Assembly: GCA_049517315.1 (NCBI GenBank)
Contig: JBEKSE010000002.1
Span: 17,202-81,201, forward strand
Source: Terracidiphilus sp.
GTDB lineage: Bacteria; Acidobacteriota; Terriglobia; Terriglobales; Acidobacteriaceae
Direction of reading: 5' to 3'
DNA: 64,000 nucleotides
The position numbers and the translations under genes are program-made. Shown in pieces: positions 31,492-61,542 of the stretch; the stretch's first letter is position 1, and each line of letters opens with the position of its first letter. The notes below the pieces were generated by a model that was given only the letters and a program-made list of their open reading frames with translations, was not told the DNA's origin and made no database searches.

Positions 31492-32571
31492 CTAATGAGC
31501 CTGGCGCGAAAGAATTTCTGCAATCCGTTCCGATGCTTTGCCATCCCATAGAGGTAGATGGCGCTTCTGGCTGTGATTGCCGCGCAACGCTTCATGAAAC
31601 TTTTCCTCGAGTAATTTCCAATTGCGGCCTATCAAGACATTTGTCCCAAGGGTCACAGTGATTGGCCGCTCGGTGTTTTCGCGCAAGGTGAGGCATGGTG
31701 TTCCCAAATACGTGGTTTCCTCTTGAATCCCGCCTGAGTCCGTGATCACAACTTTTGCGTTCTTCTGCAGCGCAAGAAACTCGAGATATCCCAAGGGCTC
31801 GATAGCTCGAAGGTCCGGATTACATTGCTCCAACTGCGCAGACCACTTTTGGCGTGTCCTTGGATGAACAGGAAAGATCAAGGGAAGCTCCCTGCTTAAC
31901 CTGTCAAGCGCCTGTAACATCGGCAAGAACGTCGATTCGTCGTCGACATTCGAAGGACGATGTAGCGTAACTAGTCCAAAAGAATCCAGGGATAGCTCTG
32001 CCTTAAGTTGCGGAAATATTTCGTCCGCTTTGGGAAGGAACTGAATCAAAGTGTCTATCATTACGTTGCCGACGAGAAACACCTTCTCCTTGGCAACGCC
32101 TTCGCGCGCAAGGTTTTCATTGCCATCGGCTGAAGGAGTGAAAAGAAGATCCGCAAGTTGGTCGGTAACCAGGCGGTTGATCTCTTCGGGCATCGCGCGA
32201 TCAAATGAGCGCAGGCCTGCCTCCACGTGTCCCACCCGAATGTCGAGCTTGGAGCATACCAGTGCCGCCGCTACGGTAGAATTCACGTCGCCATAAACAA
32301 GAACAATGTCCGGTTTATGCTTCAGTACAACTGGCTCAAATCGACTCATGATTGCCGCGGTTTGCTGCGCGTGTGAACCCGATCCAACGTTCAGGCTTTC
32401 GTCGGGATTTGGAATTCTTAATGTTTTGAAAAATACGTCCGACATGAGCGCGTCATAATGTTGGCCTGTATGCACCAGTATCTGCTCGTGCCCCTGGTCA
32501 GCCAGCGCGCGATAAACGGGAGCCGCCTTCATGAAGTTTGGCCGTGCTCCAACTACGTGTAGCACTTTCAT
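31492..32571 (-). CDS. wecB: UDP-N-acetylglucosamine 2-epimerase (non-hydrolysing)
   Basis: VVGARPNFMK, VHTGQHYD, HVEAGLRS, EEINR, TDSGGIQEE, LRENTERP. Confidence 0.96.
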   Translation of the reverse strand: MKVLHVVGARPNFMKAAPVYRALADQGHEQILVHTGQHYDALMSDVFFKTLRIPNPDESLNVGSGSHAQQTAAIMSRFEPVVLKHKPDIVLVYGDVNSTVAAALVCSKLDIRVGHVEAGLRSFDRAMPEEINRLVTDQLADLLFTPSADGNENLAREGVAKEKVFLVGNVMIDTLIQFLPKADEIFPQLKAELSLDSFGLVTLHRPSNVDDESTFLPMLQALDRLSRELPLIFPVHPRTRQKWSAQLEQCNPDLRAIEPLGYLEFLALQKNAKVVITDSGGIQEETTYLGTPCLTLRENTERPITVTLGTNVLIGRNWKLLEEKFHEALRGNHSQKRHLPLWDGKASERIAEILSRQAH

Positions 32572-32914
32572 TCTGAGATCCCTTTCCCGAACAAGCATCC
32601 CCAATGCAAAGTTCCAGCACCACTACCGACCGTAATTTCGCTTTGCGTCTTCCCCGACTTCTGAGGGGCTGCCAATCTGCAGCAATCACACTTTCCCCAC
32701 GAGTATCGAGCACTCTTCCCTTCTATGTCAAAATCATCAGAGAGAGCTATCAATTTGCAATTCGTGACCCACCTTCTCCCTAGCAAGGCGGCCTTGAGCA
32801 CAAATGCTGGCGTGATTCAGTTTCATCTATTACTATCGGGATGAATGCTGGGGTGGGTTTGATTCGGGGAACAAAGTTGAGCAATCATCGCCCTGGAATT
32901 CCGAGGAAGGTAGA

Positions 32915-45235: not shown

Positions 45236-46605
45236 TGCGCGCCTCTTCGCAGAATGATGGTTTTAATTGTCTCGAACATAATGAGCAGATCGAGACCGAT
45301 CGACTGGTGCTTGACGTAATAAAGATCGAATTCGAGTTTGCGCTTTGTTTCTTCCAGGCTTGCGCCGTACCGGTAGCGCACCTGCGCCCAGCCGGTAATC
45401 CCTGGTCGAATCATGTGGCGAAGGTCGTAAAAGGGAATTTCGTCACTGAGCCATTTCACGAATTCCGGGCGCTCAGGGCGGGGTCCGACAAAGGCCATAT
45501 CTCCGCGAAGAACGTTCCAGAGTTGCGGAATTTCGTCGAGCCTGGTATTGCGCAAATACCTGCCGGCCCGAGTGACGCGCGGGTCGTCTTTGGACGCCCA
45601 CACGGCTCCTTGCGCTTCAGAGTCTTGCCGCATGGTGCGGAACTTGTAGGCGGTAAACAAACGCCCGCGTTGCCCGACACGTGTCTGGCTGAAAAAAATC
45701 GGTCCCGGCGAAGATAGGCGCACCGCAAGAATGATCAACGGAAGGAATGGCAGGCAGATAGTCAGCGCGACAAAGGAGACCACGAAGGAAAGCAGACGCC
45801 GGAAGAGCTGCTGCGACGTGCTCATGCGGAAGCCTTCAGTGAAGATAAGAACGCTCGGATTGAGTCCGTCCAGCGGCAATTTGCCCGATAGCCGCTCCAT
45901 AAGCGAACTGGAATTCTCAATGACGACACCGCAGAGGCGAAGGTCAAGCAGTTCCCGAACAGGCATCGATTCGCGACGGTCCTCCATGGCAACCACAACG
46001 CGATCAACTCCGGGCCGAGGACCGCGAAAGCCACGAAGGTCGGCCGAGAAACGATCTGCTTGACTGGGGCCTTCGCTTGCGCCTTGCCATCCTACGACTT
46101 CCATGCCGGCATCGCGACTGCCCCGTAGTTGATCGACAACTGCGCGAGCTCGTTCGCCGCAACCCAGAACATAAACCCGTTCCCTAAACATGGGGAGACC
46201 AATAATCCACTCATAGGCCCCGCGCCAGAGGACAAGGAGAACCGCAAGAATGGAAACCCCAACGGACAAAACATAAGGGCCGACATCCAGGTCCGGGAAG
46301 CAATAGACGAGTCCAGCGAGGACAAAAGACAGCACGCTGAGAACCAGCAGCAGACGAAAATAAATCTCCCAGTCCTCGGAGATGCGCCGTGGTTCGTACA
46401 GGTCGAAGTAATATGTGAGTAGCAGTGTGAGCACAGTTATGCCGGCAATCTTCAGCAAGCCGGCCTCATAAATTAGAACAATGTATGCATCCGGACCCAT
46501 GAGGAAAGTGGTGGCCAGCAGAAATGAACTGCCAACGAGGAGCACCTCGCAAATAAGAAGCACCAAAGTCCGAGTTGGATAATAGACATTGAAAAGTCTG
46601 ATCAT
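45232..46605 (-). CDS. Priming undecaprenyl-phosphate sugar transferase (exosortase/PEP-CTERM-system type)
   Basis: Four N-terminal TM; Rossmann-like middle region; KFRTM, DPRVT, DEIPQLWNVLRGDMAFVGPRPER, RPGITGWAQ. Confidence 0.93.
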   Translation of the reverse strand: MIRLFNVYYPTRTLVLLICEVLLVGSSFLLATTFLMGPDAYIVLIYEAGLLKIAGITVLTLLLTYYFDLYEPRRISEDWEIYFRLLLVLSVLSFVLAGLVYCFPDLDVGPYVLSVGVSILAVLLVLWRGAYEWIIGLPMFRERVYVLGCGERARAVVDQLRGSRDAGMEVVGWQGASEGPSQADRFSADLRGFRGPRPGVDRVVVAMEDRRESMPVRELLDLRLCGVVIENSSSLMERLSGKLPLDGLNPSVLIFTEGFRMSTSQQLFRRLLSFVVSFVALTICLPFLPLIILAVRLSSPGPIFFSQTRVGQRGRLFTAYKFRTMRQDSEAQGAVWASKDDPRVTRAGRYLRNTRLDEIPQLWNVLRGDMAFVGPRPERPEFVKWLSDEIPFYDLRHMIRPGITGWAQVRYRYGASLEETKRKLEFDLYYVKHQSIGLDLLIMFETIKTIILRRGAQ

Positions 46606-47522
46606 CCTTGCCGCCGCTTATCCTTTCGTGTGGGCGATCCGATGCTCGCGTCCTGCTTGCCATAGTCGTAGTAATACGAAGTGCGGCGCGGAGAATCCTT
46701 GACCGCATTCAGCACAAACCCCAGGATGCGCGAATTGGCGAAGGCGGCCTGCGCGCGCTGCGCAACATCGTAAGGCGTGGCTGCTCCGCGGGCAACAAGC
46801 AGCACTGCATCGGCGGCGCGAGCCACGTCGATTGCGTCCGCAAACGCGAGCACCGGCGGAGAGTCGATCAGGATCCAGTCAAAGTGCGGTGAAAGGGCGG
46901 CTACCAGTTCTTCGATGCGATGATTGGCAACGAGTTCCGACGAGTTGTCGCCACCCGCACCAGCGGGAATAAACGCGAGATCCGGAATGCCTCGCGTGAC
47001 GCCCCCTTCAACAATTCGGGGATTCTCGTTGCGCTGCAGGATGTCGGTCACCTCTGCGGGTCCAGCGAGATACTCCGTGAGTCCAGGCGCGCTTGGCGCG
47101 CCCAAAATTGCATGGAGTGCTGGCCTGCGCAGATCGGCGTCAATGAGCAAAACAGTGTTATTCCGGTTGCGCGCCAGGCTCACCGCCAGATTCGCCACTA
47201 CATAGGTCTTGCCCTCCGCCGGCATACCGCTGCTGACAAGGATTGTCTTGAGCGGATTCTGATCGCGAAACTGGTAGATTTGCGAGCGCAGGGCGCGAAA
47301 TTGCTCGATGCTTTCGCCGCGGTCTCCGAGCGTCGGAAGTGAGACCAGGGATGGTTTCCATGAATGCAGAACCGTGTTCTCAAGGCTGACACCGGCCTCG
47401 ATCGGCGGCAAATCCTCTGGGCCGGACTCAAAGTACGGTTCAGGATTTTCAGGGGCGTCCTTTCCCTGGGCGGCTTGCCGCTCAAGATCAGCCCTTTGAA
47501 GTGCATCGTATATGCGGCTCAT
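46602..47522 (-). CDS. CpsD/CapB family BY-kinase (standalone tyrosine kinase)
   Basis: EGKT (Walker A), LIDADLRRP, LIDSPP, C-terminal Tyr cluster SYYYDY. Confidence 0.92.
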   Translation of the reverse strand: MSRIYDALQRADLERQAAQGKDAPENPEPYFESGPEDLPPIEAGVSLENTVLHSWKPSLVSLPTLGDRGESIEQFRALRSQIYQFRDQNPLKTILVSSGMPAEGKTYVVANLAVSLARNRNNTVLLIDADLRRPALHAILGAPSAPGLTEYLAGPAEVTDILQRNENPRIVEGGVTRGIPDLAFIPAGAGGDNSSELVANHRIEELVAALSPHFDWILIDSPPVLAFADAIDVARAADAVLLVARGAATPYDVAQRAQAAFANSRILGFVLNAVKDSPRRTSYYYDYGKQDASIGSPTRKDKRRQG

Positions 47523-48451
47523 ATTTCACGTTCCTTCAATGAATCCATGCCGTCGGCGACGGGCGTTATGCTGTTGAGCATATTGGTTTGCATGGTGCGC
47601 TTCATCAACACTTGCATAGCGGGAAACGAGATCATAAAAGGATGCTCGGCAAGGTCGAGTTCCAGGCCAACCGATTCGACAATGTGCGACGGAATCGGCT
47701 TGACCTGTTCGGCATAAGCGTCGATCAAGGCGTGTTCGCAGATCAAATTGATGATGCGGGGAATTCCCTTCGAGTAGCGATAGACAAGCTCCGCAGCCTC
47801 CGGCAAAAACACAAGCTCCCTGGCTCCTGCGATGCGCAATCTCTCTTCCATGTAAGCCTGCGTCTCCTCGCCATTCAGCGGCTTGGTTCTGCACCACAGA
47901 GAGACACGCTGGCGAAGCTGACGAAGGTTGGCGTTGTAAAGTTTCTCTTCAAACTCAGGCTGGCCGGATAGAACGATCTGAACAAGTTTCTCTGAAGCGG
48001 TCTCGAGATTGGTCAGCAAGCGAATCTCCTCGAGAAGTTCCCAGGAAAGGTCTTGCGCTTCATCAACCACGATGGCGCATAACTGACGGGCGCGGAAGCG
48101 TTCGATGAGCCAGCTATTGAGCTGCAAGAGCATTGCCGACTTCGTCCTTGTCTGAGGAGGAATACCAAAGTCAGTCAGCACCATCTCAAAAAAATCGAGT
48201 ACATCGAGACGAGGATTGGAAATGAAAGCTGTTGAGATGCGCCCCTTGGCGAACGTGTCCAGGACCGACCTGAGCAAGGTTGTCTTTCCTGTTCCAACTT
48301 CTCCTGTCAACACCACAAAGCCCTTGCGTGCCGCAATGCCGTATTGCAGGCAGGCGAGGGCTTCCTTGATCTGCGGTCTCAGGAAGAGAAATCGCGGATC
48401 TGGACTGGCTCCGAAAGGAAGGGCGCGAAGGCCGAAGAAGGATCTATACAT
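47519..48451 (-). CDS. ExeA-like AAA ATPase (exosortase-system associated)
   Basis: FFGLRALPF...PDPRF, GEVGTGKT, VDEAQ, LSGQPE, GIPRIIN. Confidence 0.9.
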   Translation of the reverse strand: MYRSFFGLRALPFGASPDPRFLFLRPQIKEALACLQYGIAARKGFVVLTGEVGTGKTTLLRSVLDTFAKGRISTAFISNPRLDVLDFFEMVLTDFGIPPQTRTKSAMLLQLNSWLIERFRARQLCAIVVDEAQDLSWELLEEIRLLTNLETASEKLVQIVLSGQPEFEEKLYNANLRQLRQRVSLWCRTKPLNGEETQAYMEERLRIAGARELVFLPEAAELVYRYSKGIPRIINLICEHALIDAYAEQVKPIPSHIVESVGLELDLAEHPFMISFPAMQVLMKRTMQTNMLNSITPVADGMDSLKEREI

Positions 48452-50008: not shown

Positions 50009-51256
50009 TTACTTCTTCAAGTTGATATCCCGCGGAGAGTAGGCGACGCCGAATCCGACCACCTGCGACAGCCCGTTGACAATATTTGCCGAGAGCCCGG
50101 CGTTCGATGACTGCTGAATTGCCGTGTAATTTGCAAACACCGTGAAGTATCTGCCAAATCGCCGCGTAGCCGACACCTCTCCAAGCTCCGTGTTCGTTGC
50201 GACGGTTTCATCGAGCTGCAGTGCCAGGCCCTGGGTGCGCATGTACGAGCCCGTTGCGCTGACGGTCCATCTCCTTCCGAACAGTTGCGTGATCGCTCCG
50301 GAGACATCGTCGTTGTGTATGGCAACCTCAGTTGCCTCCCCGGCGCCTCCGGTAACTCCCCTGATATAGCTGACCGTTGCCGTCGTTGAGGTCCTTAGGG
50401 CGTAGGTCGCATTCGCATTGGCAGTGAGACTCGTCGACGGAGGAACGAGTGGGTTGTTAGAGGTCTGTACCCACTCCGGCCCAGCCGAAACGCTCGTCTT
50501 GAACTGCCTGTTCCATGTGCGAAGGTAGCCAAACAGCGCGGATTGTGTGTCCATGGTCAGCTGGGGGTACGCTGGATAGCTGAATTCCCCATAAATGTAC
50601 TGGCCGAAAAGTGAATTCCGCGCGTCCAGCCGCCTGGTCATTTGTCCGTTCGCCTGCACCGAATCGGTAGCCAGTCCAATCCCATCCGGAAACCTGAGGA
50701 TCGAGTATCTGCCGCCGAGATCAAGGCTTGTTGCATGGCCGATAGTGTGCGTGAAATCCGGACCGACGGTGTTAGAAACGCTTCTCAGGTTTTGTGTCAG
50801 AATCGGCTGGGTCGGGTAGCCCGGCTCGCCCGGCAGGGTGCCCACGCCAATGATTCCCGAAAATCCAGTGACTGGCGCTTGAGGCATGTAGCTCGCTTCA
50901 TCCATCAGCTTCAGCGACCAGTCGCGCCTGACTAACCCTTCTGAAACCAACATGTGCTGGAACACCCCGGTTTCATTTGGCGGGCCGGATATGGTCCAGC
51001 TATCGCCGCCGGTATAGACCAGGGCAAGGGGATGCACTGCGCTTGTATTTGCGTAGGCCAACTCTCCGGAAGCTACGCCCATCTGCTCTGTGTATCCGTC
51101 GTAGAACTGCGCGGTCTGCGTGTAGCGCAAATCGTAGTGAAGGGTCCCGCTGATCGGCAGCCGGTAGTAAGGACCTTCAATCGAGGGTACAACCTGCGCT
51201 CCTGCCGCGGAGCTAACAACGAAGAAAATTGCCCAGAGTGTGCTGCTTGCTTTCAT
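50009..51256 (-). CDS. Outer-membrane beta-barrel protein (EPS export-associated)
   Basis: Signal peptide; alternating hydrophobic/aromatic strand pattern; located between the OPX and co-polymerase genes. Confidence 0.7.
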   Translation of the reverse strand: MKASSTLWAIFFVVSSAAGAQVVPSIEGPYYRLPISGTLHYDLRYTQTAQFYDGYTEQMGVASGELAYANTSAVHPLALVYTGGDSWTISGPPNETGVFQHMLVSEGLVRRDWSLKLMDEASYMPQAPVTGFSGIIGVGTLPGEPGYPTQPILTQNLRSVSNTVGPDFTHTIGHATSLDLGGRYSILRFPDGIGLATDSVQANGQMTRRLDARNSLFGQYIYGEFSYPAYPQLTMDTQSALFGYLRTWNRQFKTSVSAGPEWVQTSNNPLVPPSTSLTANANATYALRTSTTATVSYIRGVTGGAGEATEVAIHNDDVSGAITQLFGRRWTVSATGSYMRTQGLALQLDETVATNTELGEVSATRRFGRYFTVFANYTAIQQSSNAGLSANIVNGLSQVVGFGVAYSPRDINLKK

Positions 51257-51265
51257 TTGGCACCC

Positions 51266-51853
51266 CTACGGTACAACAATCGTATCGCCCGGATTCAAAT
51301 CGAGATTGAGTGAGATGTCGCCCTTCAACGCTCGCTTGTATTGCATGGGAATCTTCTTTTCTTTCCCGTCATCAATGCGCAAAATATAAATCCTCTTTGA
51401 GTTGGCGAACTGCGTGAGTCCGCCGGCGGTGGCAATTGCCTGAAGGAAGGTCATGCCGGGAGTCATTTCCTCCGGCCCGGGTTTTGCAACTTCGCCGAGC
51501 AGGTAAATCTTCTTGCTGTTCACCTGGGCCAGGACAACCGTGACATTAGGATCCTGAATGAACTTCTTGAGCATGACCGTAATTTCGTCGGCCAACTGCT
51601 GCGTTGTCCTTCCGGCAGCCCTGACATCGCCGAGAAGAGGCATCGAAATCATTCCGTCAGGCCGGACGAGCAAACTGCTCGACAAGGTTGGCTCTTTGAA
51701 TACGGTTACGGTGATATTGTCGGACGCGCCGATGATGTAGCTTTCGGGCACAGCCGACTTGGCCGCGTCTTTTGCAGCAGGCATTTTGTCCTGAGCGGGG
51801 CAGAATAGTGCCGGAAAAAGAACTGCCGCCGCGAGAAGGCTTCCAGATTTCAT
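51266..51853 (-). CDS. Short polysaccharide export (OPX/Wza-like) protein
   Basis: YIIGASD, VRPDGMISMPLLG, IYLLGEV, LNPGDTIVVP; only 195 aa with no C-terminal helix. Confidence 0.9.
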   Translation of the reverse strand: MKSGSLLAAAVLFPALFCPAQDKMPAAKDAAKSAVPESYIIGASDNITVTVFKEPTLSSSLLVRPDGMISMPLLGDVRAAGRTTQQLADEITVMLKKFIQDPNVTVVLAQVNSKKIYLLGEVAKPGPEEMTPGMTFLQAIATAGGLTQFANSKRIYILRIDDGKEKKIPMQYKRALKGDISLNLDLNPGDTIVVP

Positions 51854-52785
51854 TGTGCGACTCCGTTCCTGCAGAACGCGGAGTGGTTTTCCGCTTCGAT
51901 CTGCTTGAGTTTGTAAAGCAAGGCCTTATAGCTGATTCCCAAATCGGCCGCTGCGCGCTTCCGATTGCCGCCGGTGGAAATCAGAACCTCTGAGATCAAC
52001 TGGCGTTCGAGCTGGATCGAGGAGGCCCGCGTGGCTTCCTTCAACAGCAAATGCCTGCGATTTTCATTCGGCCGGCCAGATTGCGCCGCCGCGTTGATGG
52101 CCGCGAGAGAAATTGCCTGGTCTCCGATGGCCACGAATGTCTTGATTGCGGTTTGAAGTTCAGACAGATTGCCGGGCCACCTATGCTCCATCAGGTGACC
52201 GATGATTTCCTTGCAGAGAACCGGCTTGGGGCGGTCAAACTGTTTGGAGTACTGCGCCAAAAGCTCATCGGCAATGGGAAGAATCTCCGACTTACGGCAG
52301 CGTAGCGGGGGAACCTGGAGCGTCACGGCTGAGATGAAGTAGTAGAAATCCTCTCTCAGGCGCCATGACTTCACTTCTCTTGGCAGGTCGCGGCTTGAAC
52401 CAAACAAGAGACGGCAGGTTTGCACCTGCTCGGAGCGAAAATACGAGTTGACGATCAGCTCTTGCATGGAAAGGCTAAGGTCCGTTATTTCAGAAAGATA
52501 CACCGTGCCGGGAGTTGATAGCGCAGCCTGCAGGGCCTGCGCGTCCGCATCAAAGCAACGAATCTCCTGAAAAGCGTTGCGGGATAGATGCGATTGTGCG
52601 TGGATCTGCGCGGCAACAAACCGCTTCCCGGCGCCGCGCTCGCCCAGAATCAAGACAGGGCAATCGGTTTCGGCAATCCGGGCGATCGCGTTTTGAGCGC
52701 GCGTCTCGGAAGCATGGGCGGCTCTCGCCTGCCTTTTTCCATTGTGGATCATTGCAATTGTTGCCATTTGGGGACCAAACTTCAC
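51850..52785 (-). CDS. Degenerate sigma54-interaction (bEBP-like) regulator with Fis-type HTH
   Basis: PVLILGERGAGK, WPGN, GGNRKRAAADLGISYKALLYKLK; no GAFTGA, no receiver domain. Alternative start at 52767. Confidence 0.8.
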   Translation of the reverse strand: MKFGPQMATIAMIHNGKRQARAAHASETRAQNAIARIAETDCPVLILGERGAGKRFVAAQIHAQSHLSRNAFQEIRCFDADAQALQAALSTPGTVYLSEITDLSLSMQELIVNSYFRSEQVQTCRLLFGSSRDLPREVKSWRLREDFYYFISAVTLQVPPLRCRKSEILPIADELLAQYSKQFDRPKPVLCKEIIGHLMEHRWPGNLSELQTAIKTFVAIGDQAISLAAINAAAQSGRPNENRRHLLLKEATRASSIQLERQLISEVLISTGGNRKRAAADLGISYKALLYKLKQIEAENHSAFCRNGVAQ

Positions 52786-52977: not shown

Positions 52978-53108
52978 GCCGGAAGACGGATTCCCAATTG
53001 AGAGGGAGTTCATAGGGGCATTTCCCTGAATCGAAACGTTTTGTTTTCGGCCCCCGATTGCGTAATGTAAGGGTGGTACGGACCCTGTCAGGCTCAAGGA
53101 CGAGGAAA

Positions 53109-53996
53109 ATGGCTCAAGGCGTACAGACTTCAACGGCTCCCCCGTGGAACTGGCGATCGAGCCATGCCCAATTTGCGATTGGCGCGGCAGTGATATGCCT
53201 GCTGATCGCGGCGGTTTATTACAGGGTGCTCGGCAAACTGGTCGCCGACTGGTGGAATATACCGGACTTCTCCCACGGATTTCTGGTGCCCTTGTTCGCC
53301 GCATATCTTGTGTGGGAAAAGAGAGAGACCCTGCGCGGTATAAAACTCGCGCCTTCCTGGGGCGGAATTGCCGTAATGGTTCTTGGGCTGGTCGTGCTCG
53401 CTCTTGGCGTTTACGGATCAGACCTTTTTCTCTCGCGATTCTCACTGGTCATTTTGTTGGCAGGAGTGGTTCTGTGCTTTGGCGGACGGCAGTTCTTGAA
53501 GGAGCTCCGCTTCCCCTTGCTGGTCCTGTTGCTGGCCATACCGATTCCTGCCATCATCTTCAACCAGATCACTTTCCCACTCCAGATCCTTGCTTCCAAG
53601 CTTGCCAGCGGCCTGCTTCCTTTATTCGGCGTGCCCGTTCTGCGGGAGGGCAACGTCATCGAACTTCCCGCGATGAAGCTTGAGGTAGCGGAGGCCTGCA
53701 GCGGCATCCGTTCCCTGATGAGCCTGTTCACGCTGGCGGTTTTTTATGGATACTTCCTGGAGAAGTCCAATTTGCGGCGAACAGTGCTCGCAGTGGCAAG
53801 CATTCCGATCGCGATTGCCGCCAACGCAGTGCGCATTCTCGGCACCGGACTCTGCGTTCAATATTGGGACCCGGACAAAGCTATGGGCTTTTTTCACGAA
53901 TTCTCAGGCTGGGTGGTCTTCCTGGTTTCCCTGACATTTTTGTATCTTGTTCATCGCGCGATGAGCCTCATCCCGGGCAAAAGGCGGCAGATATGA
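53109..53996 (+). CDS. Exosortase (EpsH/Xrt family)
   Basis: DFSHG, VAEACSGIRSL (Cys), ANAVRI (Arg), FHEFSG (His); multi-TM; ATG 53109 behind GAGGA. Confidence 0.95.
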   Translation: MAQGVQTSTAPPWNWRSSHAQFAIGAAVICLLIAAVYYRVLGKLVADWWNIPDFSHGFLVPLFAAYLVWEKRETLRGIKLAPSWGGIAVMVLGLVVLALGVYGSDLFLSRFSLVILLAGVVLCFGGRQFLKELRFPLLVLLLAIPIPAIIFNQITFPLQILASKLASGLLPLFGVPVLREGNVIELPAMKLEVAEACSGIRSLMSLFTLAVFYGYFLEKSNLRRTVLAVASIPIAIAANAVRILGTGLCVQYWDPDKAMGFFHEFSGWVVFLVSLTFLYLVHRAMSLIPGKRRQI

Positions 53997-54634
53997 AGAA
54001 TCTTCGTTTTTGGACTGCGGTTCTGCTGCTTGCAGGAACGGCATTTTTGCTGCATACGCGCTCGAGCACAGATCGGAATCCTTTTAGTGAGCCGTTGGCG
54101 CAGTTGCCTAGCAATATCGATGGATGGACGGGAAGCGACCAGGAAATCGATCAAGATACGCTCGATGTTCTTGGAGCCGGCGACTTTCTTTCGCGCATTT
54201 ATTCACACGACGCGCAAACGGCGCCAATTGGCCTCTTCATCGGTTATTTTCCCACGCAGAGAACTGGCCAATCCATCCATTCTCCAAAGCATTGCCTGCC
54301 AGGCGCTGGATGGGTTTTTGAGTCGTCGGACTACGTCGATTTGGTCGATGTGAACGGCAAGCCGCATCGCTTGGGCGAATATATCATTAGCAACGGCGCG
54401 GCCAGGCAGTTTGTAATCTACTGGTACCAGGCGCACGGACGCAGCATAGCAAATGAATACACGGCAAAGTTTTATTTGATCGCGGATGCAATGCGGTTGA
54501 ATCGCACGGATGGGGCGCTGGTCCGAGTGATCACGCCGATTGTTCCCAACGAAGAGGTATCGGCGGCAAGAAAGCGCGCCGAGGAGTTCACTATGCGGCT
54601 TGCTCCCCTGCTGCCGCGATTTATTCCCGACTAA
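53993..54634 (+). CDS. epsI: EpsI family protein
   Basis: IHSPKHCLPGAGW, YWYQAHG, DGALVR; ATGA overlap with the exosortase. Confidence 0.92.
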   Translation: MKNLRFWTAVLLLAGTAFLLHTRSSTDRNPFSEPLAQLPSNIDGWTGSDQEIDQDTLDVLGAGDFLSRIYSHDAQTAPIGLFIGYFPTQRTGQSIHSPKHCLPGAGWVFESSDYVDLVDVNGKPHRLGEYIISNGAARQFVIYWYQAHGRSIANEYTAKFYLIADAMRLNRTDGALVRVITPIVPNEEVSAARKRAEEFTMRLAPLLPRFIPD

Positions 54635-57160: not shown

Positions 57161-58690
57161 ATGTCCAATATGACCAACACCAAGACCATCGCCCGCAACA
57201 CCGGCTGGTTCAGCATCGAAAACATAATTAACGCCGTTGTTTTGTTTACTACTTCGATAGCGATTAATCGCTATCTAGGACCCGAGAAGAACGCCTATCT
57301 CGTTTATGTCTCCTATATCGCCAGCCTGGTCAGCAGCCTGGGCAGTATGGGCATTCCTGCAACCACCCGGAAATACATGGCTGAGTTTATTGGCATGGGC
57401 GACCGGGGCACCGCGCGGTATATTTACCTGCGGACTCTTGTATTGCAGATTGGTTTGGCGACGCTGGCTACCTGCGGCTTTCTTTTCTGGGTAATCAGGT
57501 CTGCTGCGCCAGAATATAGGCTGGCATCGGTTCTTATTGTACTCAGCATTTGGCCGGCAATGATCAACTTCATCTCGGCCCAGGCCAACGCCGCCGCGGA
57601 AGATTTGGCGAAGAACCTGCCAGGCTCGATTGCCTCGGCCGTGACTTACTTCATGGCCATTGCGGCAACGGTAGTGCTTCATTGGGGGGTTGTCGGAATC
57701 GGCGCATCGCTGCTCTTGATGCGCTCTGTCGATTTTCTTGTGCGGTTTTTCCCAACCATGAAGCGTGCGCTGGCCTGGGAGACGACACATGTTCACCCGC
57801 CCGGACTGCGCCAGCGCATGATACCGTTCGCATCGCAGGCTGTTGGCAGCATGTTTGTTGCGCAGATAGTCTGGGGCCGCTCAGAGATTATTTTGCTGAA
57901 GATGCTTTGCTCGGATGTTAAACAAGTGTCTTTTTATTCCGTGGCGTTCACCATGGCTGAACAGCTACTGCTTGCGGCGATCATTTTCGGTACGGCGGCC
58001 GGCACCACGATTTTCGCGCAGTACGGACGGGACAAATCCAGGCTGCCCGAACTTGGCGCCTCCACATTCCGCTATATCGTCATGATGTCGATTCCGCTGC
58101 ACTTTATCGCAGCGTCGCTCGCGTATCCCGCGCTACTGCTCTTCTACGGTCACAAGTTTGAAGGCGCAGCGATGGTGGTTACACTGGCCCCACTGTTGTG
58201 CATGTTCAAAGCCTTTCTAGCGCCGGCGCAGAACCTGCTGGAAAGTTTCGAACGGCAGCGATATGTGATTGCCGCGACAGTCATAGCGGGGGTGATCGAT
58301 ATCAGCGTCGCGTGGTGCCTGATTCCTTCTTATGGCGCGGTTGGCGCTTGTATCGGCAACGGTGCGGCTCAGTTGGCGGCCGTCAGCTTGATGTGGATGG
58401 CAGCAATCCGCCTATACAAGGTAAGACTTCCCTGGTTGCTGGTGGCCAAGATTGTTTTTTGCAGCGCACTGGCATCCTTGACCGCGCATTATATTGCCAT
58501 GCTGATGGCGCCGTGGTTGGCCATTCTTTGCGGTGGAAGCGCCGCACTTGCCGTTTTCTTTGGCTTCTTCTATCTAACGCGAGTGGGCGAGCCGAGCGAC
58601 CACGATCGACTCAAGATTTTGGTCGGGATCCTGCCTAAGCCGTTGGCGAGCCCCGCCGGAAGAGTACTATCTTCGTTGTTTCGTGTGTAA
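57161..58690 (+). CDS. Wzx-like polysaccharide flippase (MOP superfamily)
   Basis: IARNTGW start; about 12-14 TM; LIPSYGAVGA. Confidence 0.88.
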   Translation: MSNMTNTKTIARNTGWFSIENIINAVVLFTTSIAINRYLGPEKNAYLVYVSYIASLVSSLGSMGIPATTRKYMAEFIGMGDRGTARYIYLRTLVLQIGLATLATCGFLFWVIRSAAPEYRLASVLIVLSIWPAMINFISAQANAAAEDLAKNLPGSIASAVTYFMAIAATVVLHWGVVGIGASLLLMRSVDFLVRFFPTMKRALAWETTHVHPPGLRQRMIPFASQAVGSMFVAQIVWGRSEIILLKMLCSDVKQVSFYSVAFTMAEQLLLAAIIFGTAAGTTIFAQYGRDKSRLPELGASTFRYIVMMSIPLHFIAASLAYPALLLFYGHKFEGAAMVVTLAPLLCMFKAFLAPAQNLLESFERQRYVIAATVIAGVIDISVAWCLIPSYGAVGACIGNGAAQLAAVSLMWMAAIRLYKVRLPWLLVAKIVFCSALASLTAHYIAMLMAPWLAILCGGSAALAVFFGFFYLTRVGEPSDHDRLKILVGILPKPLASPAGRVLSSLFRV

Positions 58691-58767: not shown

Positions 58768-60468
58768 GTGGCCCTGATGAGTGACACTTCGATGATGCGA
58801 ATGAAGGTGCTGGTCCTGGATGCCGAAAGCGCGGCAGGTTTGGAGACGGTCCAAAGCCTTGGCAGATACGGTTGTACCGTACATACTGCCGCTTTCCAAG
58901 CTCGGCAGAGATTCCGCAGTTCCCGTTTTGTTCGCAGACATTTTCTTTTGGGTACCTTGAAAGACGAAGCCATTCATGACCTGGTCTCTCTTTTCGAGGC
59001 AGAGAAGTATGATCTTGTAGTTCCGGCTACTGAAGTATCGCTGCTTGCAATGCTCTCGCCGGAGATCCCGGATAGTTTGTACCAGCGTGCAGCATTGGCT
59101 CCGCGACCAAGCGTGCAGACCGCATTGGACAAGCAGGCAGTCTGGGAGCTGGCGCAGCGCATTGGCGTCCGAGTTCCCACATCTGAGTTAGTTTGCTCTT
59201 CAAGTTCTCAGCCAGATACTTTTCCTGTCGTACTCAAGCCTGTGCATAGCAAAAGAAATGCCGACGGAGTTGTGAAAGAGTTTGGAGTAACTATCGTCCG
59301 TGACTTGACGCAGTGGAGGGCGGCGCTGACAACGACATATCAGGGCATCCCCGTTCAGCAACAGCAATACATCCCAGGAAAGGGTTTGGGCGTGGAGATG
59401 CTGTTCCAGCACGGAAAGCCCCAATGGGCCTTTCTTCACGAACGAGTGCATGAGCTTCCGCTCACCGGCGGCGGCAGCAGTTATCGCGTATCACTCGCGT
59501 TAAGAGACGACCTGGTTGAGAGCGCAACCCTGCTACTGTCTGCGCTTGATTGGCACGGTGTCGCGATGGTCGAGTTTAAGGTCACGCCGAGTGGCGATGC
59601 TTATCTCATGGAGATCAATCCTCGATTGTGGGGATCGCTCGCGCTTGCAATTGATTGTGGAGTTGACTTTCCTGTTGGCTTGCTCCGCCTTGCCACTGGA
59701 CAGCCAATTCCGCCTCAACCCAGGTACCGCACTGGTTATTACACCCGAAATTTATATCGTGATATTGAATGGCTCAAGACTAACTGGAAGGCTGACCATT
59801 CAGACCCTTTGCTGCTGACAAAACCCATAATCCCCTCTATTCTAGGCTGGTTGCGGCCGCTGATCGGAAAAGAGAGCTGGGACTTCTTTTGCTGGACCGA
59901 TTTGGGGGTGGTGCTCGTCGAAGTGAAAACCCTTATCGTTGAACATTGGCGAAGGGTTGTCAATGTTGTCAGGCGTCGTACCCGCCGTCTATACCTGGAG
60001 CATATTCAGCAACCGTTAATGATTCGAAGGCTGCGCGGGCGGCAAATCGACAAGGTACTGATTCTCTGCTACGGCAATATCTGCCGCAGCCCACTCGCCG
60101 CCGCTTTGGGAGCCCGGCGGTTCCCGAACGTCTCTTTCTCATCTGCGGGATTCTACTCGGAAACCGGCAGGCAAAGTCCTGATTTCGTGATCGCCGCAGC
60201 CGGGCAGCTCGGAGTTGACCTTGCTGAGCACCGTTCAAAGTGTGTCGATGTGAAGATGATCGATGAGGCGGATCTGATCGTAATTATGGATATGCGCAAC
60301 TACGAGCTTCTCGAAAAAGCATTTCCTGGCGCGCTTGAAAAAACACTGTTTCTCGGAATGTTGCTGCCTGCCCCACAGCTTGAGATCAAGGACCCATACG
60401 ATAGCCCGGCGTCGATGCCGGCAACAGCTCTTGAATTGGATTGCGCAATCGGGCTGATGTGGAAATAA
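58768..60468 (+). CDS. Fusion of an ATP-grasp carboxylate-amine ligase and a low-molecular-weight protein tyrosine phosphatase
   Basis: ATP-grasp: PVVLKP, QQYIPG, AMVEFK, LMEINPRLWGS. LMW-PTP: CYGNICRSP, HRSK, IKDPY. Start position uncertain (58768-58801). Confidence 0.88.
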   Translation: MALMSDTSMMRMKVLVLDAESAAGLETVQSLGRYGCTVHTAAFQARQRFRSSRFVRRHFLLGTLKDEAIHDLVSLFEAEKYDLVVPATEVSLLAMLSPEIPDSLYQRAALAPRPSVQTALDKQAVWELAQRIGVRVPTSELVCSSSSQPDTFPVVLKPVHSKRNADGVVKEFGVTIVRDLTQWRAALTTTYQGIPVQQQQYIPGKGLGVEMLFQHGKPQWAFLHERVHELPLTGGGSSYRVSLALRDDLVESATLLLSALDWHGVAMVEFKVTPSGDAYLMEINPRLWGSLALAIDCGVDFPVGLLRLATGQPIPPQPRYRTGYYTRNLYRDIEWLKTNWKADHSDPLLLTKPIIPSILGWLRPLIGKESWDFFCWTDLGVVLVEVKTLIVEHWRRVVNVVRRRTRRLYLEHIQQPLMIRRLRGRQIDKVLILCYGNICRSPLAAALGARRFPNVSFSSAGFYSETGRQSPDFVIAAAGQLGVDLAEHRSKCVDVKMIDEADLIVIMDMRNYELLEKAFPGALEKTLFLGMLLPAPQLEIKDPYDSPASMPATALELDCAIGLMWK

Positions 60469-60504: not shown

Positions 60505-61542
60505 TCAAGGCCAATACTTGCCGGTGAATCTGCAAACATCCGTTTGAACCCGGAAGCGGCTCCAGCTTGGGTGGTCTATGCCGATTCGATTCACATCATA
60601 AGGAGTTGTCTCGCCAGGTAAATTTGTGCCGCCATACTTTGAAAAGGCTGCGCGATAACCCGCGTCTTGTGCCGTCCTCTGTGTCTCACCTGTGAAGCTG
60701 GTCCTGGCGCCGACCGGATAGGCAAGCACATCGGCTTCTACACCAAGATTTTCCCTCAGGATTTGCCTGGACCTGGATAGCTCTTCGTATTGCATATCCG
60801 GCTCCAGTTGGCTCAACACATGGTGCGAATGTGTGTGGGACCCGATCACCATGCCGCTTCTGTGCATCTCCCGAGCTTCATCCCAATCCAAAAAGCGCCG
60901 CAGAGTCACGGGCGGCACGTTGCCTTCTGAACTTTCCCCTAGCTCCCGAATGAAACGCGCAGAATCGAAATTCTCAGGCCTCTTATATAACTTCAGTACG
61001 GTCCGCAAGCTCTCCGTCAAGCCGTTCCCGTCAATATCGACAGCCAAATCAGACGGGTAGCGGAGAGAGAATCGGCGCCTGCGCGCGGTTTTCATCAGAT
61101 AGGCAATGTGATCCCACCAGGGAAGTTGACAGGATCCCACCATGCTGGTGGCCAGGAAGAAAACACCTTGTGCGACGTGCGTTCGCAGAATAGGGTAAGC
61201 GATTTCGTAGTTATCAAGGTAGCCGTCGTCGAAGGTGATCAACACCCGGCAGCGGCGAGTCTTCTCCTTGATCGTGCCTTCAACAAAAGACAACGCTTCA
61301 TCTAGTGTCACCAGAAAATCGCCGTGCTTTAGATAGGATATCTGATCGTTAAATTGGTCGGCAGTCGCCGAGAAAACGCCGGGATCGAAGAGATCGTCCT
61401 CGGGATTCCCAATGCGATGATAATTCAAAACTAATAGAGAATCTCGTGCTGGGAGTTGTGAAAACAAGTAGGCGGCGCCGCTCCAGTGCAACCCGCGCGC
61501 CAGCAACTCTCTCTTCCCGTTGAAACTCAGGCCGCCTGCCAT
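60505..61542 (-). CDS. Polysaccharide deacetylase (CE4/NodB)
   Basis: LNYHRI, ITFDDGY, IGSHTHSH, LAYPVG. Confidence 0.93.
   Translation of the reverse strand: MAGGLSFNGKRELLARGLHWSGAAYLFSQLPARDSLLVLNYHRIGNPEDDLFDPGVFSATADQFNDQISYLKHGDFLVTLDEALSFVEGTIKEKTRRCRVLITFDDGYLDNYEIAYPILRTHVAQGVFFLATSMVGSCQLPWWDHIAYLMKTARRRRFSLRYPSDLAVDIDGNGLTESLRTVLKLYKRPENFDSARFIRELGESSEGNVPPVTLRRFLDWDEAREMHRSGMVIGSHTHSHHVLSQLEPDMQYEELSRSRQILRENLGVEADVLAYPVGARTSFTGETQRTAQDAGYRAAFSKYGGTNLPGETTPYDVNRIGIDHPSWSRFRVQTDVCRFTGKYWP

Follow-up and report, generated by a model that had tools for sequence, protein, structure and literature searches.

The window analysed here is a stretch of 64,000 nucleotides from Terracidiphilus sp. 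(GenBank assembly GCA_049517315.1, contig JBEKSE010000002.1, positions 17,202 to 81,201 of the forward strand), and positions are counted from its first letter. One gene in this window joins an ATP-grasp ligase in frame to a low-molecular-weight protein tyrosine phosphatase (LMW-PTP). We propose that it encodes a bifunctional cytoplasmic enzyme that belongs to a conserved, undescribed module for glycan tailoring, in which a CE4 deacetylase works alongside an ATP-grasp ligase and an LMW-PTP-type phosphatase. That the ATP-grasp enzyme and the CE4 deacetylase form a functional pair is well supported. The parts of the fusion gene are:

58768..60468, plus strand: ATP-grasp::LMW-PTP fusion gene, one open frame of 566 aa, with the stop codon ending at 60468
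58801..59895, plus strand: ATP-grasp ligase domain (Pfam), with the conserved C-terminal extension R316..D321..W324..ESWD
59902..60033, plus strand: 44-residue basic amphipathic helix joining both domains (DSSP helix 368-411 in the AlphaFold2 model)
60046..60447, plus strand: LMW-PTP (LMWPc) domain (Pfam PF01451, E 1.3e-15)
60067-60090, plus strand: phosphatase P-loop CYGNICRS (C-X5-R-S), read from the sequence, with Ile where arginine phosphatases have Thr
60391..60399, plus strand: DPY general-acid loop, read from the sequence

The original prediction described an ATP-grasp domain followed in frame by an intact CYGNICRSP...DPY phosphatase. This description holds: the frame is 566 aa long, both Pfam domains are found in it and the catalytic residues are present. 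We are practically certain that the fusion gene is genuine. Its start is ambiguous between GTG at 58768, ATG at 58777 and ATG at 58801. Relatives start with MSDTS..., which matches the ATG at 58777, and the database copy P0001 (555 aa) uses the ATG at 58801. Residue numbers such as C423 and K146 follow the 555-aa numbering. The N-terminal two thirds of the protein match ATPgrasp_Ter (PF15632; 38.1 bits, cut-off 29.1) and ATP-grasp_3 (PF02655; 23.6 bits, cut-off 23.2). LMWPc is found at residues 430-546 with 58.3 bits (cut-off 23.2), which places this half in the LMW-PTP superfamily. The ATP-grasp half has the ATP/Mg residues of a ligase, namely K146 (VLKP), E258 and E271-I-N273-P-R275 (MEINPR). 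Judged by these motifs, both halves look catalytically competent. NCBIfam models gave sub-threshold matches only (Wzb, "carbamoyl phosphate synthase-like" ATP-grasp proteins and ArsC), and a promoter and terminator scan gave nothing informative.

An AlphaFold2 (AF2) model of the fusion protein was built on a 71-sequence alignment and reached a pLDDT of 90.2 and a pTM of 0.74. When the model was compared with the PDB by Foldseek, the best match was L-amino acid ligase 3vot (E 2e-17). Further top matches were RizA, PylC, PurK and biotin carboxylases, all of which are carboxylate-activating ATP-grasp enzymes. The matches to 3vot, RizA, PylC and the biotin carboxylases (E 1e-14 to 2e-17) assign the ATP-grasp fold to the protein. 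Among solved structures, the C-terminal domain is closest to AmsI 4d74 (E 5e-14), Wzb (2wmy, 2wja and 2fek), Wzb-type phosphatases of Vibrio and E. coli, and YwlE. The linker region that contains the helix (residues 366-414, 49 residues) has a net charge of +8 in the window protein and a median of +9 in the 71 members; its hydrophobic moment in the window protein is 0.77. As modelled, the helix may be a membrane-surface or oligomerisation element. Hydropathy analysis found no transmembrane (TM) segment or signal peptide in the fusion protein or the CE4 protein. Because these are lacking and the linker is basic and amphipathic, we infer that both proteins are cytoplasmic and work at the membrane surface on lipid-linked intermediates.

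The fusion belongs to a large family. A word-indexed protein search returned 1,342 matches, and almost all of the top 120 have a length of 555-600 aa, both Pfam domains and 43-89% identity. An exhaustive search of 50%-identity representatives returned 1,126 proteins at E<=1e-30, and most of the best 150 align across both domains with identity down to 32%. A survey of domain architectures had been suggested with the original prediction; the searches reveal a large multi-phylum family that shares the single-frame architecture. In alignments of 30 and of 71 sequences, the phosphatase residues C423, G425, N426, R429, D531 and P532 are invariant, and K146, E258, E271, N273 and R275 are invariant or nearly so. 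In the same alignments, I427 of the P-loop is kept in at least 90% of the family. The extension R316..D321..W324..ESWD is family-specific and is conserved across the fusion relatives. From this conservation, purifying selection on both active sites can be considered secure.

The fusion could in principle be an assembly or annotation artefact, or its phosphatase domain a decaying remnant, and the existence of close relatives without the phosphatase domain would fit this. We reject a frameshift or assembly artefact because hundreds of independent homologues with 32-89% identity have the same single-frame architecture. This architecture is seen among the 1,126 representatives (most of the best 150), the catalytic residues are invariant and the AF2 model is confident over both domains, so that this explanation is effectively refuted.

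Relatives were found in Acidobacteriota, Pseudomonadota, Nitrospirota and Myxococcota, and most clusters of the fusion family come from soil Acidobacteriota. Full-length members are found in Terracidiphilus, Edaphobacter, Acidobacteriaceae, Ca. Angelobacter, Porticoccus, Nitrospira, Stellaceae, Allosphingosinicella and a myxococcal "Deltaproteobacteria" metagenome-assembled genome (MAG). The distribution is sporadic. In our GTDB sampling, the fusion was absent from all 24 other species representatives of the same genus and was present in 2 of 301 genomes across the phylum, with the source genome counted. Longer members of 800-990 aa (P0011, P0038, P0027/P0122, P0104, P0146 and P0151) carry an N-terminal family 2 or family 1 glycosyltransferase (GT2, GT1) or a methyltransferase, or extra C-terminal sequence, on the ATP-grasp::LMWPc core. 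The close relatives P0045-P0053 (~70% identity) have no phosphatase domain. Database names are generic only: "ATP-grasp domain-containing protein" at NCBI and "protein-tyrosine-phosphatase/predicted ATP-grasp..." at JGI. A full-text literature search found no paper on the ATP-grasp::LMW-PTP architecture, which bears out the earlier statement that no characterised example was known.

The strongest conserved partner of the fusion is a CE4 deacetylase, which the original prediction overlooked. In the window its gene lies next to the fusion:

60505..61542, minus strand: CE4 polysaccharide deacetylase (Pfam Polysacc_deac_1, E 8e-24), convergent with the fusion gene across a 36-bp gap

The adjacency of CE4 and ATP-grasp that defines the proposed module is thus present in the window. 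We compared 18 full-length fusion loci: the window, L010, L016-L018, L029-L034, L056, L123-L125 and L127-L129. The CE4 gene is the next gene in 12 of these loci and lies within 3.5 kb in 15. CE4 also adjoins the unfused orthologous ATP-grasp gene in Gemmatimonadota, Steroidobacteraceae, Desulfuromonadales and a Methanocellaceae archaeon. In L037 and L040, a separate LMWPc gene abuts such an unfused ATP-grasp gene. In the Terracidiphilus sp. MAG locus L029, the downstream CE4 is seen as two short overlapping open reading frame (ORF) fragments (L029:15032-15492); a broken gene or an assembly error is possible there.

We consider a three-step chemistry for the module fairly probable. In it, the neighbouring CE4 enzyme would deacetylate an amino sugar of the exopolysaccharide (EPS) repeat unit, probably while it is lipid-linked at the inner membrane face. 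The locus can supply N-acetyl amino sugars:

31492..32604: UDP-GlcNAc 2-epimerase

The ATP-grasp half, going by its fold and motifs, would then make an acyl-phosphate and from it a new amide. This could be an amino acid or organic acid placed on the freed sugar amine, or an amine placed on a uronic acid. The basic amphipathic helix would keep the protein at the membrane. De-N-acetylation followed by ATP-dependent re-acylation or amidation is the most economical chemistry. The CE4 partner suggests that what the sugar contributes is the amine, either in place of the carboxylate or in addition to it. UDP-sugar dehydrogenase genes adjoin the fusion in L016 and L125, and these keep the amidation of a uronic acid alive as an alternative.

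Known ligases share parts of this scheme. The L-amino acid ligases (B. licheniformis Lal 3vot and RizA 4wd3) and PylC 4ffl have the same ATP-grasp fold with conserved ATP/Mg residues, but the fusion is only 13-17% identical to them and has its own C-terminal extension and basic helix. Unlike the L-amino acid ligases, it is partnered with a CE4 enzyme, so one substrate is probably a sugar. Haft et al. 2006 reportedly paired a polysaccharide deacetylase (TIGR03006) with a FemAB-family protein (TIGR03019) in XrtA/PEP-CTERM loci. Like the fusion module, that pair combines a deacetylase with an expected aminoacyl-adding enzyme in exosortase EPS loci. However, the ligase here is an ATP-grasp enzyme, dependent on ATP and not on tRNA, it comes with a phosphatase domain, and the window deacetylase has no TIGR03006 match. 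A FemAB-like gene (Acetyltransf_6) was seen near the fusion in L018 and L129.

The role of the phosphatase half is less settled. With Ile in the P-loop and an aromatic residue in DPY, it would be a competent Cys/Arg/Asp phosphatase of the phosphotyrosine type. The locus also encodes a bacterial tyrosine kinase (BY-kinase):

46602..47522, minus strand: stand-alone BY-kinase (TIGR01007 128 bits, above the cut-off; TIGR03018 131.8 bits, below the cut-off)

This kinase has the Walker A motif GMPAEGKT, and its tail is RRTSYYYDYGKQD, with the SYYYDY that had been noted before. The phosphatase half may therefore be an accessory, local protein-tyrosine phosphatase that acts on the locus BY-kinase or its targets, and it would then add a second reset activity to a conserved PHP-type phosphatase described below. 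We hold its action on the BY-kinase or another phosphotyrosine only tentatively, as something short of probable. The phosphotyrosine reading is based on the motifs, on Wzb and AmsI as the best matches, on the missing ArsC Cys pair, on the cases in or next to kinase operons, on the absence of any further phosphatase gene from the XrtA locus and on the lack of a substitute phosphatase in modules without the domain. The phosphatase is dispensable for the ligase, as seen in P0045-P0053, in the syntenic locus L012 and in many phosphatase-less CE4 and ATP-grasp pairs, and this fits an accessory regulatory role.

Wzb, AmsI and Etp, the partners of Wzc, AmsA and Etk, are the nearest known enzymes. Like the fusion, they have the PF01451 fold, a C-X5-R-S P-loop and a DPY general acid, and they are found in a Wzx/Wzy-type polysaccharide locus with a BY-kinase. 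Unlike them, the fusion is not a stand-alone protein of ~150 aa, is not kinase-adjacent, and is co-inherited with ATP-grasp and CE4 rather than with wza and wzc. On the Wzb equivalog model NF007520 it scores 52 bits against a cut-off of 243. The window kinase lies 11 kb away on the other strand. The domain is not of the ArsC class either: TIGR02691 gives 26 bits against 174, and the residues that align with the Cys pair of ArsC include no Cys. In the arginine phosphatase YwlE, a P-loop Thr (CTGNTCRS) selects phosphoarginine. The fusion has Ile at this position in CYGNICRS, which sets it apart from the YwlE type.

We built a tree of 109 LMW-PTP domain sequences with ArsC as the outgroup and SH-aLRT values as support. 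The Wzb clade (SH-aLRT 97) holds 17 BY-kinase-adjacent proteins and 1 other, and no fused domain. Orphan canonical LMW-PTPs, including those from the proteobacterial carriers of the module, form a separate clade with support 96. A third clade, with a moderate SH-aLRT of 81, unites all 41 fused domains with all 6 ATP-grasp-adjacent ones; it lies outside the Wzb clade and is sister to the orphan LMW-PTP clade. The tree indicates that the fused domain is Wzb-like at the family level only, and that its evolutionary partner is the ATP-grasp enzyme. The earlier remark that it is the sole Wzb-like domain in the window is correct in that no other LMWPc domain is found there.

The source genome (G000) has two LMWPc genes, which are the fusion and an ArsC-type gene (CTGNSARS) on contig C34. 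The latter was considered as a hidden Wzb and was rejected, being of the arsenate reductase type. It lies in an arsenic resistance cluster (C34:45804-48337), where ArsC (163 aa) stands between genes of 362 aa and 310 aa. In the equivalent cluster of the relative G353, the corresponding neighbours resemble, by sequence, an ACR3-type arsenite transporter and a SAM methyltransferase. Three BY-kinases of the source genome exceed the TIGR01007 cut-off: the window kinase, a 749-aa Wzc-like protein beside Wza on C44 and the kinase of a second ATPase-kinase pair on C5. The fusion is the only LMW-PTP besides ArsC in this genome with three BY-kinases. A phosphatase of the CpsB/CapC PHP type is also encoded, at C24:59390-60355 on the minus strand (L026:7391-8356; E 1e-50). 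This type is usually tied to Gram-positives. Here it is an orphan beside a YebC-family gene, at a distance from each of the three BY-kinase loci, and it is a likely general BY-kinase phosphatase of this Gram-negative lineage. Because it is present and conserved in the lineage, the fusion is not the only candidate BY-kinase phosphatase, and we rejected the argument that a kinase link follows from the fusion being the only phosphatase available.

Several observations weigh against a role in the kinase cycle. The phosphatase clade is co-inherited with ATP-grasp and not with BY-kinases, and its placement outside the Wzb clade has been given above. Only 4 of the 18 fusion loci have a BY-kinase within 10 kb. 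Because the same phmmer screen recovered the BY-kinases in 17 canonical wza-wzb-wzc control loci, the negatives are meaningful. In 3 of the 18 loci (L017, L123 and L124), CE4 and the fusion form an isolated pair far from polysaccharide or kinase genes. The PHP phosphatase is single-copy in 14 of 16 genomes of the genus and its relatives, with or without the fusion. Proteobacterial carriers of the module also hold a canonical LMW-PTP elsewhere in the genome; these were considered as kinase-adjacent Wzb proteins and rejected as orphans. Betaproteobacteria carry CE4, LMWPc and ATP-grasp, in this order, as three abutting genes (L055, and L046 of Duganella sp. 1224), which looks like a pathway operon. 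On the other side, the fusion is found inside a BY-kinase operon in L010 and L127 and directly upstream of an ATPase-kinase pair in L018 and L030. BY-kinase-like genes occur in all 13 other genomes checked that carry the module, several of them on the same contig 2-32 kb away.

In Duganella sp. 1224, which is a cultured isolate, the ATP-grasp protein is fused to an N-terminal membrane acyltransferase-3 domain (L046:8883-12702). The cluster adjoins a purine nucleoside permease gene and has no BY-kinase within 10 kb.

The relative G353 gives a natural case of loss. Its locus L012 is syntenic with the window and has the order exosortase, EpsI, PrsT, multi-TM protein, ATP-grasp ... CE4, trpF, trpC. 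The ATP-grasp protein of L012 is 416 aa long, is 72% identical to that of the fusion and ends inside the linker helix, with the phosphatase domain absent. We rejected a move of the domain to another place in G353: the sole LMWPc gene of this genome is an ArsC, and all that tblastn recovers is the linker helix, retained where the ATP-grasp gene ends. Nevertheless, G353 encodes three BY-kinases, including one within L012, as well as the PHP phosphatase, which also counts against the kinase role. The natural loss in G353 indicates that the ligase works without the phosphatase domain and that the kinases work without any LMW-PTP. Between ATP-grasp and CE4, where the window has just the phosphatase domain and the 36-bp gap, four genes are inserted in this locus (L012:9387-13850), namely a GT2, a second ATP-grasp of 433 aa, a GT1 and a GT2. 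At its tailoring end, the locus is a hot spot where cassettes are exchanged.

The original prediction proposed that the fusion couples the decoration of repeat units to the kinase cycle that controls polymerisation and export. This is not supported as stated. CE4 is the conserved neighbour and a kinase is nearby in few loci, the domain falls outside the Wzb clade, a conserved PHP phosphatase is present, and the G353 kinases do without an LMW-PTP. Decoration may still be coupled to the polymerisation cycle, but the comparison of loci and genomes does not favour this idea.

As an alternative, the LMW-PTP-fold domain may act on a substrate that is not a protein. CE4 would free an amine, the ATP-grasp half would ligate a phosphorylated building block (a phospho-amino acid, a phospho-hydroxy acid or an aminoalkyl phosphate) and the phosphatase domain would remove the phosphate. 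We regard this as credible but doubtful. Pathways of this kind are known. In the C. jejuni HS:2 capsule, the ATP-dependent amidoligase Cj1438, which is of the ATP-grasp type, adds a phosphorylated amine to a capsule sugar and the phosphatase Cj1435 then removes the phosphate. This pair, which we compare by description only, shows that a ligase and a phosphatase can form a tailoring pathway. Unlike the phosphatase of the fusion module, Cj1435 is a separate protein of the HAD type, and no CE4 deacetylase is involved. The mycothiol and bacillithiol pathways use a glycosyltransferase, a phosphatase (MshA2), a deacetylase (MshB/BshB) and an ATP-dependent ligase (MshC/BshC). These are the same four activities if the glycosyltransferase-fused members are counted, but this is an analogy only: the enzymes come from unrelated families and the products are small-molecule thiols, whereas most fusion members are in polysaccharide loci. 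By such a route the module would swap the N-acetyl group of an envelope amino sugar for a different, initially phosphorylated acyl or aminoacyl group, and the LMW-PTP lineage would have been recruited from phosphotyrosine; we give this proposal limited credence. The phosphatase clade is tied to ATP-grasp in at least five phyla, fused or adjacent, which argues for a non-protein substrate, as do the Betaproteobacterial operon and the isolated two-gene modules without kinase or EPS genes. The coexistence of the domain with canonical LMW-PTPs and the conserved PHP tyrosine phosphatase points the same way. Moreover, the fusions with a glycosyltransferase or methyltransferase (P0011, P0038, P0027 and P0104) resemble enzymes of multi-step pathways, and a clade-specific conserved Arg, R457 (GRxSP), maps to the substrate-entrance variable loop of other LMW-PTPs. 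However, the active site retains all phosphotyrosine-type features (P-loop Ile and DPY), and besides the arsenate reductases we know of no LMW-PTP-family enzyme whose physiological substrate has been proven to be anything but a protein. In close relatives and in many CE4 and ATP-grasp pairs, the ligase evidently functions with the domain missing, and a stand-in phosphatase family does not recur in the neighbourhood. The 25 commonest families among 103 proteins that neighbour unfused ATP-grasp relatives include no phosphatase family, a count in which singletons would be missed; on this count we rejected the replacement of LMWPc by another phosphatase family. No gene for the synthesis of a phosphorylated amine or acid donor was seen beside the fusion in the window.

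The phosphatase could also act in cis or within an oligomer and strip Tyr phosphate, placed by a BY-kinase, from the ligase itself or from CE4, which would make the fusion a self-resetting tailoring enzyme under kinase control and not a regulator of the kinase. We think this improbable. Polysaccharide enzymes, for instance UDP-sugar dehydrogenases and priming transferases, are known targets of BY-kinases, and both the tight coupling of ligase and phosphatase and the dispensability of the domain would fit. A near-invariant Tyr, Y228 (GGGSSYR), lies within the conserved Gly-rich loop of the ATP-grasp domain, although it may be a mere substrate-binding residue. A tethered phosphatase would make the phosphorylation futile unless it were gated.

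BY-kinase and phosphatase cycles govern how long the polymers of many bacterial capsules and slimes become and how they are exported, and N-acyl and amide decorations set the charge, antigenicity and material properties of such polymers. The family has more than a thousand sequence clusters in several phyla and is without a curated model. If the phosphatase acts in the kinase cycle, this would be a new wiring of tyrosine-phosphatase activity into the repeat-unit assembly line. If its substrate is not a protein, the LMW-PTP fold would gain its first substrate other than proteins and arsenate, and a new three-step pathway of sugar tailoring would come with it. This question is tractable by experiment, since the protein looks soluble, the model is confident and the cultured Duganella sp. 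1224 has the three activities as separate genes.

The 28-62 kb region of the window is a Wzx/Wzy-type EPS locus of the XrtA/PEP-CTERM kind, so that the stand-alone BY-kinase does share a locus with the fusion, as first described. The operon on the minus strand opens with a short sigma-54-activator-like gene, followed by a Wza-like export gene, the gene of a 415-aa protein and a chain-length determinant. Next come a PEP-CTERM AAA ATPase, the BY-kinase, a priming transferase (TIGR03013) and GT2 genes. On the plus strand, the order is exosortase, EpsI, PrsT, a multi-TM protein and the fusion. Leftward in the locus are the UDP-GlcNAc 2-epimerase, family 4 glycosyltransferase (GT4) genes, a Wzy-like gene, two acyltransferase-3 genes, a GT2 like polyprenyl-phosphate-sugar synthases and two glycosyltransferases of the GT-C fold. 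Two further features are:

57161..58690, plus strand: multi-TM protein, putative Wzx/MOP-like flippase, directly upstream of the fusion
47519..48451, minus strand: XrtA/PEP-CTERM-associated AAA ATPase, which together with the kinase lies directly downstream of the fusion in some relatives

The gene at 57161..58690 had been called a flippase. It does lie next to the fusion, as described, and encodes a multi-TM protein, but a MOP/SpoVB-like match in favour of a flippase is weak (E 8e-6), and Pfam gives no match. Its position is kept in L012 and L029.

Three other parts of the locus deserve mention. The first gene of the export operon (51850-52785, minus strand) encodes a protein of ~310 aa that matches only the C-terminal half of sigma-54 activators. 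It has AAA+ and helix-turn-helix (HTH) domains and no receiver, and the short form is kept in L010, L012, L029 and L127. The 415-aa protein between the Wza-like gene and the chain-length determinant (50009-51256, minus strand) has no Pfam or NCBIfam match. It is kept at the same position in the same four loci and is a core component of the XrtA operon. At 53058-54634 on the plus strand, the longest exosortase and EpsI ORFs share ~130 bp, and either ORF corresponds to one half of the fused XrtD/XrtW models. A frameshift in a split exosortase was rejected, since L012 and L128 have XrtA and EpsI as two abutting genes, so that the window shows the usual arrangement of this pair.

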